Shown here in pieces: positions 27,001 to 36,000 of a DNA stretch of 64,000 nucleotides (within the stretch, counting starts at the first letter, position 1; each line of letters begins with the position of its first letter). This DNA comes from Escherichia coli O127:H6 str. E2348/69 (GTDB taxonomy: Bacteria > Pseudomonadota > Gammaproteobacteria > Enterobacterales > Enterobacteriaceae). The stretch lies in assembly GCF_000026545.1 (NCBI RefSeq), contig NC_011601.1. One strand, given 5' to 3'. Position numbers: made by a program.

Positions 27001-30000
27001 GCTCTGGCAGAGTGGAGCGCTCCGATTCAGGCGCGTCGTCACTCTACTCGTGTACATAATCCGGCAGTAGAAAAGCGTCTGGCGGCGATCACCGCCCAGG
27101 ACAGTCAGCGTGCGAATGTCTATGAAGTGCGTGCTGAAGCTCAGCGTGCGCGTTTTAAACTGCCCGCGTGGCCGACCACCACGATTGGTTCCTTCCCGCA
27201 AACCACGGAGATTCGTACCCTGCGTCTGGATTTTAAAAAGGGTAATCTCGACGCCAATAACTACCGCACGGGCATTGCGGAACATATCAAGCAGGCCATT
27301 GTTGAGCAGGAACGTTTGGGACTGGATGTGCTGGTACATGGCGAGGCCGAGCGTAATGACATGGTGGAATACTTTGGCGAGCATCTGGATGGCTTTGTCT
27401 TTACGCAAAACGGTTGGGTACAGAGCTACGGTTCCCGCTGCGTGAAGCCACCGATTGTTATTGGTGACGTTAGCCGCCCGGCACCGATTACCGTGGAGTG
27501 GGCAAAATATGCGCAATCCCTGACTGATAAACCGGTGAAAGGGATGTTGACCGGCCCGGTGACTATTCTCTGCTGGTCGTTCCCGCGTGAAGATGTCAGC
27601 CGTGAAACCATCGCCAAACAAATTGCGCTGGCACTGCGTGATGAAGTCGCGGACCTGGAAGCCGCTGGAATTGGCATCATTCAGATTGACGAACCGGCAT
27701 TGCGCGAAGGTTTACCACTGCGTCGCAGCGACTGGGATGCCTATCTCCAGTGGGGCGTGGAGGCTTTCCGTATCAACGCCGCCGTGGCGAAAGATGACAC
27801 ACAAATCCACACTCACATGTGTTACTGCGAGTTCAACGACATCATGGATTCGATTGCGGCGCTGGACGCAGACGTCATCACCATCGAAACCTCGCGTTCC
27901 GACATGGAGTTGCTGGAGTCGTTTGAAGAGTTTGATTATCCAAATGAAATCGGTCCTGGCGTCTATGACATTCACTCGCCAAACGTACCGAGCGTGGAAT
28001 GGATTGAAGCCTTGCTGAAGAAAGCGGCAAAACGCATTCCGGCAGAGCGTCTGTGGGTCAACCCGGACTGTGGCCTGAAAACGCGCGGCTGGCCAGAAAC
28101 CCGCGCGGCACTGGCGAACATGGTGCAGGCGGCGCAGAATTTGCGTCGGGGGTAAAATCCAAACCGGGTGGTAATACCACCCGGTCTTTTCTCATTACAG
28201 CGACGTCTTCCCAGCATACTGCGTAAACCATTCCAGATATCAGTTCATACCCTGTTTAAGAAAATCTTCTTTATTCCCTTCTCATGAAATAAATTTCGTC
28301 ATTTCCGCCATTTTTTCTATCTACCTCTCCATCACATATTAAAAATTACTTGATATCTCTATGTTTTTTAATGAAAAACATATCAACCTATGATCTTTCT
28401 TGTGACTAGCTTCACATTTCATACTGATGCATTGGAATGAAATAAAATTTCATGAGATTTTGTGTTTGAGAAAATTATTTCATGAGGTGTGAAATGGACG
28501 CAAAGCTGTACATCACTGAGATCATCAATGAATTAACCTTCGTTAAGGACTCTATCCGTGAGGATGACTGCACCAAATTGATCGACGCTATTCAGCAAAG
28601 CCAGCGCGTTTTCTGCTATGGCCTGGGACGTGCCGGCTTTTCCATGAAAGCCTTCACCATGCGCCTGATGCATATGGGAAAAGAGGTTTACTTCCTGACG
28701 GAAACCATTACGCCGAACTTTGGGCCTGGCGATCTGTTTATCGTTTCTTCCGCTTCCGGTGAGACAGCACAACTGGTGGCACTGGCGAAAAAAGCACGTC
28801 AGCTTGGCGGCGCTGTGGCGGTGTTAACCACGAATCGACACGCCACTATCACCGAGTTTGTCGATGTCATCGTGCAAATTAATGCCCCTTCCAAAAATCA
28901 AAAAGATTCTGTTTTCCGCTCGGCACAGCCGATGGCGTCGTTGTATGAGCAAGCTTTGCTGGTGATTGCCGATGCATTAGTGATGAAGATGGCTGCTGAA
29001 AGTGGTGCGCCGGAAAGTGAACTGTTTAAGCGCCACGCCAATCTGGAATAGTCGTCGCCGTTATTTGCTCGATACCCTACAGGAGAATAAAAATGAGCAA
29101 AAAAATAACATCCTTGTTTAACTTCAAGAAGTTGCAGAAATTTTCTTCTGCTCTGATGTTACCAATCGCCATTCTTCCGGCGGCGGGTTTGATTTTAGCC
29201 ATCGGGATTTCATTTAACATTGAGCTGCTGGCGAATTGCGGCGGCCTGATTTTCGCCAACCTTCCTTTGCTGTTTTGTGTCGGTATTGTGATTGGCCTGA
29301 CAGGTGATGGTTCTTCTTCACTTTCAGCGATTATCAGCTACATGATCATGAATGCCACGATGGGAACGCAACTTGGCATTACCGCGGAGTCCGTTGCAGC
29401 CAGTAACGGTGACTATGCGATGATCCTCGGGGTACCGACGTTACAAACGGGAGTGTTTGGCGGTTTGATTGTCGCCATCTTTGTTTATCTGCTCTATACC
29501 CGCTTCCACAATATTGAATTGCCTCAGTTTCTTGGTTTCTTCGGTGGAAAACGCTTTGTACCGATTATTACGGCGGTGGCGGCAATTATTGTCGGCTATT
29601 TATTGCCGTGGCTGTGGATACCGGTACAAAAAGGTCTGGCGTCGCTTTCAACGCTGGTGACCAGTGGGCATAACGCGAACTTCGCGGCCTTTATTTACGC
29701 CGTTGGCGAACGTTCGCTGATTCCTTTTGGCCTGCATCATATCTGGAACGTGCCGTTTTATTACAACTTTGGCGACTACATGGCTAAATCCGGGCAACTG
29801 GTGACGGGCGATATTCCGGTGTTCTTTGCCCAATTGCGCGACGGTGTTCCGTTGACGGCGGGGCTGTTTATGACAGGTCGTTTCCCGATCATGATGTTTG
29901 CGTTACCTGCCGCCGCGTTGGCGATGTATCAGGAAGCAAAACCTGAACGTAAGGCGCTGATTAAAGGCCTTTTACTCTCCGGTGCGCTGACCACATTTGT

Positions 30001-33000: not shown

Positions 33001-36000
33001 ATAGAATATGCCGCATTAATTTGCATTTCCGGGCTGACGTGAACAACGGTTTTTAATCCGAGTTGGCTGAATTTATAAGCACCATAAACGGCCAGAGGGT
33101 TTGAATTTCCGGCAGCAAAAAAGAAAATAGTATCGCAATTAGCAAGTAGTTTGAGAATGGACTCAAGTACTTCGGCATTAAAAAATTGCGTTGATTGTAT
33201 TAAATCTTCGGCCTGTTTTTTTAATAAAAATGTGGCCAGCGACGTTATATCGGTAAAATCGGTATTATCAGGATAGCTATTGTCAGGATTAATGACTTCT
33301 TTTGCTAATGCAATTTTTAAATGGTAATAACCCTGATAACCTAATTTCTTACAGGTGCGTACGATAGTCGCTTCACTGGCATGGCTTTTTTCTGATAGTT
33401 CAGTGACACTATAGTTCACGACTTCATGTGCGTGGCTAAGAATATAGTCAGCGACCTTTTTTTCCGCCTGATGCAGTGTAGGGTAATTGCTTTGAATCAG
33501 ACTTTTTACGGTTATGTTATTCATAATTAGTAAATTTCATTCTGACAGAAAGTGCTGATTATAACATAGTTTTCAGGCGTGGATAGGTATGAAAAAATGA
33601 AGGTGTGCAGTGAACGTAATGATTAACAGACCGGTTAATTTTCATGAATTACGTCAACTGCACAAAAATAATTTAAACGGGCGCTCTAATTAAAGCAAGA
33701 CTTATATTTTTATCATTGTATTGTCAATTAAATACAAATCGTGTCATTAATTGCGGGTTTCTTAAATATTCTATGCACCACTGACAGGCTTTGCCCATAC
33801 CATCGGAACGAGCGGCAAGAAATAACTTGGTGGCGTGTTTATGTTCGCGCATTGGCTTTTTAAGCAATTTACCGCTGTTCAATAACGGCAATGCCAGATG
33901 ATGTGGAATATAACCAATACCGACGTTTTGTTCTATTAAGGCGATTGCCGTAGCGAAGTCAGGAACAAAAATGGGTTTTTGTCCTTCCAACAACCAGGCT
34001 TGCATCGGGGGGAAGTTAACGGAGGTATCGCGGATACAAACCGCTGGATAATGACGCAATTCACTGTTTTCTAATGGATGCCGCTTCGCTGCCAGTGGGT
34101 GGAGTGGGCTGACGACAAAATCCCATTCCATTTGTCCGACCGGTTCGCTAATGATGCCTTCACTGCTTGGTACTGCATGAGGAGCACCGTAGACCAGATC
34201 AGCACGCTTACTGTACAGCGCATCCCAGCAGCCGTTGTATACCTCAAGATCTACCGTCAGTGTTGTTGATGTGAATTGCCGTTCAAAATCTCGAATAAAT
34301 GCCACCAGCAAATTACCAGGAATAATATTGTTTACCGCAATTGTCAGTTCACGCTCAATACCATCGTGAATCAGCACTGTGTTGCGCTTTAATGCTTCCA
34401 GATCGCCAAGAATAGTTTTGCTATGTTCGATGAAGTAACTTCCCGCTGGCGATAATTCAATATAGCGTCCCTTACGAATGAACAGTTCAACGCCCAGGCT
34501 CTCTTCCGCTTTCTTGATAGTGTAACTGATGGCGGAAGGGACTTTATTTAACTGCTCGGCTGCGGTGGTAATGCTCTGGTGTCTGGCGACCAGATGAATA
34601 ACACGAAGCGTTTCGTCTGAGATGAACATAAGGCTCCCTGGTCAGTGGTAAAGTGGCTGAATCTCTCCAGATTCAGCCGTAATCATTGCCTGAGTATACC
34701 CAGGAATTAGCGGTGTTGACTTGCCCGACTGAGAATCGCATACGCGATACATGCCACCAGAATCGAGTCTACCGAAGGGATCGTCGTCAGGGTGAATAAG
34801 CCTTTTACGGTCATAAAGCCAACCGCTGCGCCTATGATCCATGCTGCGAATGTCAGCACTTTAATCTGTGACTCCTGGGCTAACACTGACTCTTGATAGC
34901 CATTACGGCGATAAAGGAAAAAGTCAGCGATATAAATTCCGGCAACGGGTGGCGTGGCGATACCCAGGAACAGCAGAAACGGAATAAACCACGCCATAAT
35001 ATCCATACTGCCTACGATGGCGGAAAGGATACCCAGCGCCACGGTAATCTGCCATTTGGGAAAGCGGGTAAGCAGTGTGGAAACCACCAGCGTGCCCTGG
35101 AACATATTGCCCGCGTTACCGGTGACGCAGGCGAAAATCAACAACAGCGCCGCAGGCAGAACCGCACCGAATACCGCCATCGCACCCAGTAAAGATCCCT
35201 GACCACTAATGGCGCTCGGCGTTGCACCCGCCCAGTAGAGCAGAGGGTAGGCAACCAGAAACGTCACGCCTGCGGCAATCAGCGCATGTTTGCGGTTATG
35301 CACAAAACTACCGAAATCAGGCAGTGTGGCAACCAGCACAATAATGGTGCCAACAACGGTGGAAACGGCGACACCTGTATTCATCTCCACAATCGCCGCT
35401 GGTACTGCCACTTCGGTATGGGTTGCCACATAGAGGATGTAACACAGCACCAGCGCGATAACCGGCACGGCAACCTGGGCAATTTTTCCCAGAACGGTAA
35501 AGCCAAATGCCGTAGAGGCGACAAAAATGACACAGCCAGCCGCCACTAACAGTGCCAGTGGAACTTCCAGTCCATGTTGAGCCAGTAAGTCATGTACCGA
35601 ATGACCAAACATATTGGCGGTAACGGCAATCCAGCCGAACAGACTTATCGCCATCAAAATGTTAATGGCGATGGCCCCTTTTTCGCCAAACGAATATTTC
35701 ACAATGCCATACGTTGGCAGGCGGGCTTTTTCTCCCACGCTAATGGTGATGGCTGAAAGTAAGGTCAGAATGACGCCGCCTAACAATACGACGCTAATTA
35801 AACTGCTGCTGGAAAGTTGATTGCCGAGGCTTGAGGATGACAACAGTACAGGTGTGACGGCAATACCCAGCAAAATCATGGCAATACGCAATCCTGATGC
35901 CGTATTCAGATTCTCTTCTTTTTTACGCATAGTATGTTCCCTTTATAAATGCGCGTTACACAGTATGAAAATGCCCGGTGTATTTGCGCCAGCTACCCAG

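Follow-up and report, generated by a model that had tools for sequence, protein, structure and literature searches.

The cassette analyzed here occupies positions 28494–33524 of a 64,000-nucleotide stretch (the window, referred to as such throughout) of the genome of Escherichia coli O127:H6 str. E2348/69 (GCF_000026545.1, contig NC_011601.1), and encodes a SIS-domain sugar-phosphate isomerase, a glucose-family permease of the phosphotransferase system (PTS; enzyme IICB, EIICB), the transketolase Tkt1 and a convergently transcribed MurR/RpiR-family regulator. We consider it somewhat probable that these genes form a horizontally acquired, catabolite-repressed catabolic operon, controlled by CRP and an RpiR-type repressor, for a glucose-like sugar other than glucose, the carbon of which would feed the pentose-phosphate pathway. 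The locus itself is already known, as the cassette makes up the left-hand portion of the already described “tkt1 genomic island”. New here are the assignment of the isomerase, by its sequence, to a separate branch within the 6-phospho-3-hexuloisomerase (PHI) family, one which never adjoins a hexulose-6-phosphate synthase (HPS), and the linkage of this clade, across four phyla, to transketolases together with either glucose-type PTS uptake or ABC transporters and ROK proteins.

The isomerase matched the PHI model TIGR03127 over its full length with 205 bits (NCBIfam cutoff 160) and aligned end to end with YckF/HxlB of Bacillus subtilis (1m3s, 138 bits). In the alignments, the protein and its clade retained both the phosphate loop (SxSGET) and the HANLE motif at the C-terminus. 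The profile comparison proposed in the initial annotation for telling a PHI from a GmhA/KpsF-type SIS protein came out on the side of PHI, and the latter identity was rejected (26 bits on GmhA). The PHI family was surveyed by scanning species-representative genomes with an alignment of close SIS relatives, which yielded 80 PHI-family loci; an adjacent HPS gene (hxlA) was found at none of the 15 loci with at least 46% identity to the E. coli protein vs. almost all of those at or below 44.5%. In a neighbour-joining tree of 106 PHI-family proteins (22 in the HPS-less clade and 84 outside it), HPS adjacency was seen for 0/22 loci inside the clade vs. 73/84 outside, and a transketolase gene lay within 8 kb at 14/22 clade loci vs. 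6/84 of the others. The island was likewise devoid of an HPS gene in the RefSeq annotation. A ribulose monophosphate (RuMP) cassette, which the initial annotation had already argued against, was therefore rejected, and the pathway is presumably one of sugar catabolism rather than formaldehyde fixation.

The gene neighbourhoods of the clade were compared across taxa. Klebsiella (80% identity of the SIS protein) has the SIS, EIICB and transketolase genes and a convergent rpiR, followed by genes for a glycerate kinase of the MOFRL type, an α/β-hydrolase, a TIM-barrel enzyme (AP_endonuc_2) and a dehydrogenase of the GFO_IDH_MocA family (hereafter GFO), and Serratia ficaria (72%) has the same set minus the transketolase. 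In two proteobacterial metagenome contigs (L006 and L008, 62–64%) the transketolase and SIS genes adjoin an ABC transporter and a ROK regulator and kinase, followed in L008 by the hydrolase and the TIM-barrel enzyme. Glutamicibacter (51%) combines the SIS gene with EIIBCA, GFO, the TIM-barrel enzyme, the hydrolase, HPr and EI. The order in Rhodococcus is SIS, EIICBA, HPr, EI, GFO, TIM-barrel enzyme, hydrolase and transketolase. Sebaldella carries SIS-TktN-TktC-EIICB-RpiR, and a metagenome locus (L094) carries the TIM-barrel enzyme, GFO and hydrolase followed by SIS-TktNC-EIICB-RpiB-EIIA-RpiR. The SIS, transketolase and RpiR genes recur together in Olsenella, and a Firmicute metagenome contig (L099) encodes EIICBA, SIS and a split transketolase, with the GFO, TIM-barrel and hydrolase genes absent within 10 kb. 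RpiR-type regulators accompany the clade in Sebaldella, L094, Olsenella and Secundilactobacillus. Conservation of the cassette genes together elsewhere, which the initial annotation had named as a check on its proposal, was thus observed in Klebsiella, Sebaldella, Rhodococcus, and metagenomic Firmicutes and Fusobacteria.

The transketolases linked to the clade come in two forms, full-length in E. coli, Klebsiella, L006/L008 and Rhodococcus, and split into N- and C-terminal proteins in a Lachnospiraceae metagenome-assembled genome (MAG), Olsenella, Sebaldella, L094 and L099. The presence of two non-orthologous architectures beside a single SIS clade points to repeated independent recruitment, which argues for a real functional coupling between isomerase and transketolase. 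The linkage often extends to GFO oxidoreductases, TIM-barrel enzymes, α/β-hydrolases and glycerate kinases, such extended clusters being found in the Klebsiella-like, Serratia, Rhodococcus, Glutamicibacter, Lachnospiraceae and L094 loci. The extra enzymes gave only weak, sub-cutoff NCBIfam matches and no equivalog, and a sequence search found no PDB relative of the TIM-barrel protein. GFO_IDH_MocA, AP_endonuc_2 and α/β-hydrolase genes are absent from the window, and the Klebsiella module of GFO, TIM-barrel, hydrolase and glycerate kinase genes had no DNA match among 5426 complete E. coli genomes, so that E. coli carries the minimal form of a wider conserved pathway.

The permease followed the same clade. 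It scored 608 bits on TIGR02002 (PTS-II-BC-glcB, cutoff 592) and also matched TIGR00826, but reached only 443 bits on the E. coli PtsG equivalog model NF008301 (cutoff 647) and 385 bits against PtsG structures, and its identity to PtsG is about 44% (PMC12928451). It therefore does not group tightly with a characterised permease, a possibility the initial annotation had set against its own proposal. The GITEP and CATRLR motifs (the latter with the phosphorylatable Cys) were visible in the translation, the domain order is EIIC followed by EIIB (cluster representatives carry PF02378 and PF00367), and no EIIA domain is present, so the protein presumably relies on the chromosomal Crr, HPr and EI. 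Relatives with at least 62% identity always adjoin genes of the SIS clade and were never seen in the antiterminator/EIIA/HPr context of true ptsG genes, whereas those at or below 57% (the next ones being at 50–57%) belong to ordinary Firmicute glucose PTS loci with antiterminator, EIIA and HPr.

Tkt1 scored 1009 bits on the transketolase model TIGR00232 (cutoff 682), is 68.8% identical to E. coli TktA (2r5n) over 658 residues, and keeps all thiamine diphosphate (ThDP), metal and substrate motifs of TktA. The TktA residues covered by these motifs are His26, His66, His100, Asp155, Asn185, His261, Arg358, Ser385, Glu411, His461, Asp469, His473 and Arg520. Its description as a divergent transketolase was therefore overstated: Tkt1 is predicted to be a canonical enzyme, and its sequence gives no reason to expect inactivity. 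The regulator gave full-length matches to the HexR, MurR, RpiR and AlsR models, each below the equivalog cutoff, and its Klebsiella orthologue (78% identity) carries PF01418 and PF01380. Across the four genes, E2348/69 and the uropathogenic E. coli (UPEC) strain UPEC132 differ by 25 synonymous vs. 5 non-synonymous changes, and in comparison with Klebsiella dN/dS was 0.015–0.02 for EIICB and Tkt, with synonymous sites saturated for SIS and RpiR. These substitution patterns show that the cassette genes are under purifying selection.

All four open reading frames were found exactly where the initial annotation had placed them (Table 1), and its view of an island operon that joins a PHI-like SIS protein, an EIICB of the glucose family and a third transketolase, rpiR being convergent to it, was upheld by the profile matches and the gene spacing. 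The three plus-strand genes are separated by gaps of 41 and 50 bp, and a terminator scan predicted no terminator between them, the metE terminator lying upstream of the cassette at 28163–28185. The isomerase start was set at 28494 rather than at an upstream ATG at 28482, in agreement with the RefSeq annotation, a GAGG ribosome-binding site 5 nt upstream and the N-termini of homologues. The region 28200–33600 is 100% identical to NZ_CP059840.2, and the cassette lies inside an island bounded by metE and ysgA in the RefSeq annotation of the identical E2348/69 region. The hairpin between the convergent tkt1 and rpiR genes was not called by the terminator scan and may possibly act as a bidirectional terminator of both.

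The region upstream of the isomerase gene contains the sole perfect TGTGAN6TCACA site of the window (0.06 expected), a candidate CRP site, the TGTGA...CACA core of which is kept in the aligned upstream regions of Klebsiella and Serratia. Three of the four copies of ATTTCATGA in the window fall within these 200 bp (0.83 expected in the whole window); the Klebsiella orthologue has the same boxes upstream with the same 30-bp spacing, and they also occur in Serratia. Together with the palindrome ATGAAATAAAATTTCAT, these boxes are candidate operators of the RpiR-type repressor. Half-sites of the ATGAAAT type were also found in the 199-bp spacer upstream of rpiR. A promoter scan returned no convincing sigma-70 site upstream of the operon, and an Rfam scan of 28000–34800 no RNA element.

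Table 1 Features of the cassette and its flanks (window coordinates), and loci with glycerate kinase genes in other bacteria (coordinates of the respective locus)
Feature	Position	Strand	Remarks
SIS-domain sugar-phosphate isomerase, 185 aa	28494–29051	+	RefSeq hxlB; equivalent to APECO1_2643
Glucose-family PTS EIICB, 502 aa	29093–30601	+	RefSeq ptsG
Transketolase Tkt1, 665 aa	30652–32649	+	RefSeq tkt; named tkt1 in PMC3349570
MurR/RpiR-family regulator, 281 aa, HTH_6 and SIS sensor domain	32679–33524	-	RefSeq MurR/RpiR regulator
ATTTCATGA box	28282–28290	-	Upstream of operon
CRP-like site TGTGACTAGCTTCACA	28401–28416	+	Perfect TGTGAN6TCACA, ~85 bp upstream of first gene
Palindrome ATGAAATAAAATTTCAT	28437–28453		Single occurrence in window
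ATTTCATGA boxes	28447–28455 and 28477–28485	+	30 bp apart
Weak hairpin AAGGGGT ... ACCCCTT	32658–32687		Between convergent tkt1 and rpiR, overlaps rpiR stop codon; read from sequence
17-nt inverted repeat TGTGCAGTGAACGTAAT / ATTACGTCAACTGCACA	33604–33664		27 nt between arms; in 199-bp spacer upstream of rpiR
Glycerate kinase locus L093	9001–16180		Gene neighbourhood
Glycerate kinase locus L094	2424–13428		Gene neighbourhood
Glycerate kinase locus L002	12215–16558		Gene neighbourhood
Glycerate kinase locus L005	647–5872		Gene neighbourhood

Taken as a catabolic operon, the cassette could work as follows. EIICB, together with the chromosomal EI, HPr and EIIA-Glc, would import and phosphorylate a glucose-like sugar other than glucose, and the PHI-clade SIS protein would then shift the carbonyl of the sugar phosphate via an enediol (3-ulose/2-ulose or aldose/ketose), yielding an ordinary ketose (or aldose) phosphate that Tkt1 could drain into the non-oxidative pentose-phosphate pathway. 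The SIS domain of RpiR may sense the sugar phosphate, which would relieve repression at the ATTTCATGA boxes, with cAMP-CRP activating the promoter. We infer each of the biochemical steps, the pairing of regulator and operators, and the direction of flux from gene content and motifs; the unusual ketose as substrate and the dedicated two-carbon transfer, as the initial annotation had them, would be suppositions of the same kind.

Several observations weigh against such an operon. Overexpression of tkt1 from pBAD did not rescue the K-12 tktA mutant BJ502 on arabinose, and the tkt1 deletion mutant showed no difference in carbon source use on Biolog PM1-8 (PMC3349570); for a tkt1 mutant, the phenotype microarray suggested in the initial annotation thus already exists. 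No pathway or substrate has been published for the cassette in the 14 years since its description. Plain fructose-6-phosphate as the product of the isomerase would make a transketolase unnecessary, and the logic of the coupling is therefore not understood; most clusters outside E. coli also hold enzymes that E. coli lacks, so its version could be incomplete. The failed rescue of BJ502 is one single negative experiment, and the missing carbon phenotype of the deletion says little because TktA and TktB remain and would mask the loss. Li et al. drew a different conclusion from their data, namely that Tkt1 does not function as a transketolase but has its role in the nitrogen metabolism of dipeptides, which would leave its neighbours functionally unrelated. 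Besides the complementation failure, this rests on a defect of the mutant with Pro-Ala and Phe-Ala as nitrogen sources that was reversed by complementation (PMC3349570). We find it improbable, as the ThDP-, metal- and substrate-binding motifs of TktA are all in place, two transketolase architectures are tied to the same SIS clade in many taxa, and no known chemistry joins a transketolase to dipeptide use, so that the phenotype may be indirect.

That the cassette is instead the leftover half of a Klebsiella/Rhodococcus-type cluster, with no complete catabolic function of its own, would agree with the extra genes of the full clusters in the six groups of extended loci, the lack of any DNA match to the extra module in complete E. 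coli genomes and the tkt1 mutant without a carbon phenotype (PMC3349570). We regard it as unlikely, given that roughly one in five E. coli genomes keeps the genes intact, under purifying selection and with conserved promoter motifs, that a minimal set of PTS, SIS and Tkt genes occurs in an unrelated Firmicute locus and SIS, Tkt and RpiR genes in Olsenella, and that a mutant from signature-tagged mutagenesis (STM) was attenuated (PMC3349570). Just as doubtful is a redundant role, in which EIICB would serve as another permease for glucose, the PHI-like and Tkt proteins contributing no more than flexibility of flux, with no new substrate. EIICB does exceed the cutoff of the “glucose-specific IIBC” equivalog-domain model, if barely (608 vs. 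592), its next relatives are Firmicute glucose permeases, and Tkt1 looks canonical; however, the EIICB clade at 62% identity or more occurs only beside the SIS clade and outside the glucose PTS context, a dedicated RpiR regulator and a PHI-type isomerase would be senseless for glucose, and other taxa serve the same enzymes with ABC transporters and ROK kinases. RuMP-type handling of formaldehyde could still operate with HPS activity supplied in trans, for example by a promiscuous activity of the 3-keto-L-gulonate-6-phosphate decarboxylase (KGPDC) homologues SgbH or UlaD, and the SIS protein does pass the PHI equivalog cutoff, PHI and transketolase both being enzymes of the RuMP cycle. This is very improbable for a clade that is never HPS-adjacent and is tied to sugar transporters, kinases and sugar-phosphate regulators, and for a promoter with a CRP-like site.

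The published tkt1 island is 16 kb long in the avian pathogenic E. coli (APEC) strain APEC O1, is inserted between metE and ysgA and is strongly linked to extraintestinal pathogenic E. coli (ExPEC) of phylogroup B2; tkt1 was originally picked up by subtractive hybridisation and STM, and in chickens the STM mutant lost out in competition (Li et al. 2012, PMC3349570). A 2026 paper on the BEN2908 genome lists the region as GR 29, with the SIS_PHI, PTS-II-BC-glcB and RpiR open reading frames as uncharacterised sugar-metabolism genes (PMC12928451). In full-text searches the locus was mentioned only in these two papers, and no paper was found that describes a pathway for the cassette or links PHI to anhydro sugars. 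The statement of the initial annotation that this is no characterised E. coli pathway thus stands as far as the pathway is concerned, although the locus itself had been published (PMC3349570, PMC12928451). Of the 5426 complete E. coli genomes, 1134 carried the cassette, and all 1134 covered at least 80% of the query at 95% identity or more.

The E2348/69 island occupies the same metE-ysgA site as that of APEC O1 and other ExPEC, is 99% identical to UPEC copies, and shares the gene order given in Table 2 of Li et al. (PMC3349570): sugar isomerase, PTS IIBC, tkt1, regulator, LysR, permease, carbamate kinase, yahG/F/E-like genes and hydrolase. It differs in lacking a ~1.8-kb segment by which UPEC132 and APEC O1 separate metE from the isomerase gene (a pseudo-tssD (Hcp) gene and two small hypothetical open reading frames), and the left junction is accordingly variable (window 28186–28393 vs. 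UPEC132 locus L096 742–3000), only the last ~100 bp upstream being common to both. A further difference is an ISEc13 insertion in the right-hand module that splits a yahG-like gene. The IS4-like element lies at 37668–39041, inside a DUF1116/YlbE(YahG)-like gene, and leaves two pseudogene fragments (37311–37538 and 39052–40293), so the right-hand module is probably inactive in E2348/69.

This right-hand two-thirds of the island (33724–43500) is a separate minus-strand module. It codes for a LysR regulator and an NCS1 (cytosine-type) permease, for carbamate kinase, FdrA and a cysteine hydrolase, and for an allophanate-hydrolase-related and an AllH-like protein. The module resembles a paralogue of the oxamate/allantoin cluster of K-12 (fdrA-ylbE-ylbF-carbamate kinase), which suggests catabolism of a nitrogen heterocycle, and is unrelated to the sugar cassette (PMC12928451). 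The G+C content is mosaic, with 38–44% in the rpiR-lysR stretch (window 32500–34500), 54–56% in tkt1 and 46–50% in the SIS and EIICB genes, and the cassette and its regulator may therefore differ in history. In the E. coli wastewater isolate AVS0747 (H20), tkt1 has lost its 3′ end and lies up against a fragment of icd and the integrase gene of a lambdoid prophage (L100, 11453–13546). This locus was rejected as an alternative gene context, as it is a prophage-linked rearrangement that truncates tkt1 and removes rpiR.

Some features of the clusters in other bacteria bear on possible substrates. Non-homologous glycerate kinases stand beside the GFO, TIM-barrel and hydrolase genes, of the MOFRL type in Klebsiella and Serratia and of the PF02595 type in the metagenome loci L093 and L094, the latter also having an RpiB/LacAB-type isomerase. 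As two non-homologous kinases were recruited, the extended branch probably yields glycerate, and may also give a tetrose phosphate. In the Lachnospiraceae MAG (L013, 6162–10207), the SIS, split transketolase, GFO, TIM-barrel and hydrolase genes are interleaved with a D-psicose 3-epimerase equivalog, a tagatose-kinase-like PfkB and a GatZ/KbaZ-like protein, a context that hints at a link to rare ketohexoses. L099 (3710–6648 and 15452–20555) carries, besides its minimal cassette, three further SIS genes among two genes of the orotidine monophosphate (OMP) decarboxylase fold (HPS/KGPDC-like), Dak1/Dak2, a mannose-family PTS and a cupin-type phosphoglucose isomerase, and is thus a dense cluster of hexulose-phosphate-type genes.

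A more specific lead, which we think quite unlikely to be right as it stands, is that the cassette is the E. coli representative of a cross-phylum pathway for carbonyl-shifted or anhydro sugars, in which the HPS-less PHI would migrate the carbonyl of a 6-phosphorylated glucose analogue and the product, or a tetrose phosphate from C-C cleavage, would enter central metabolism via transketolase. Speculatively, the analogue could be an anhydro sugar (1,5-anhydrofructose or 1,5-anhydroglucitol) or a 3-keto sugar, and a rare ketohexose or heptose could also qualify. The extended cluster might hold what is required to turn the 6-phosphate of an anhydro or keto sugar into a hex-3-ulose phosphate by oxidation, elimination and hydration, conceivably with uptake of the glucose type, a dehydrogenase (GFO), a lyase or epimerase (the TIM-barrel enzyme), a hydrolase, a carbonyl shift of the PHI type and a transketolase; it is specifically a PHI unaccompanied by HPS that this route would call for. 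Literature searches returned nothing connecting these elements to an anhydro-sugar route. The chemistry could be made to fit several substrates (1,5-anhydro sugars, glucosylglycerate, heptoses, psicose/tagatose, 3-keto-glucose), none of which is claimed here. E. coli uses 1,5-anhydroglucitol anaerobically via a PTS and the glycyl-radical enzymes YbiW/PflD, and no oxygen-tolerant route is known according to the same review (PMC12441222, summarising Ma et al. 2024). If the lead were true, the extended form would be an NAD-dependent, oxygen-tolerant counterpart of this glycyl-radical route, and the minimal form would open a host-derived glucose analogue in blood or urine to B2/ExPEC strains.

Few markers of the B2/ExPEC lineage are as consistent as the tkt1 island, in which an STM mutant was attenuated. 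With the isomerase-transketolase core as a conserved unit in Proteobacteria, Actinobacteria, Firmicutes and Fusobacteria, separate from the formaldehyde-fixing PHI, an anonymous “virulence-associated gene” becomes a defined biochemical question. Should the substrate be a host- or diet-derived glucose analogue, a niche advantage of extraintestinal E. coli would be explained and a new entry route into the pentose-phosphate pathway added.

Among characterised systems, the hxlAB RuMP cassette of B. subtilis (HPS and PHI) matches the E. coli SIS protein in PHI fold, length, phosphate loop and HANLE motif, the identity to HxlB being ~40–44%, but here the protein has no HPS partner, belongs to a separate clade and stands in a PTS, transketolase and RpiR context. 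The same architecture is seen in the E. coli N-acetylmuramic acid genes murPQR, which likewise combine a glucose-family PTS EIIBC, a SIS enzyme for the resulting 6-phosphate and a regulator of the MurR/RpiR type that has a SIS sensor domain. In contrast to the cassette isomerase, MurQ is an etherase of 298 aa and belongs to another SIS subfamily, the mur operon is not known to include a transketolase, and the MurP and MurR models scored far below cutoff on the cassette proteins.

Transketolase-dependent sugar routes are found in the sulfoquinovose sulfo-TK pathway and with tktC in Salmonella. Another is the D-apiose route of aptAB in E. coli ST131 (PMC13001218). In all three, as proposed for the cassette, an accessory transketolase within a sugar cluster splits a non-standard ketose (phosphate) into pentose-phosphate intermediates; however, their transketolases are split and have specialised substrates, whereas Tkt1 is full-length and close to TktA, and their clusters contain kinases or other transporters and no known PHI-type isomerase. 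The extended clusters outside E. coli additionally recall the oxidise-then-eliminate routes for anhydro- and glycosylated sugars, i.e., LgdA/B for levoglucosan, DgpA/BC for C-glycosides and the 3-keto-glycoside pathway of Bacteroides, with which they share the pair of a GFO dehydrogenase and an AP_endonuc_2 TIM-barrel enzyme. The profile matches to these systems are weak and fall well short of the cutoffs, the substrates in the present case would be 6-phosphates, and the hydrolase, PHI-type isomerase, transketolase and glycerate kinase of the extended clusters have no known counterpart in them.

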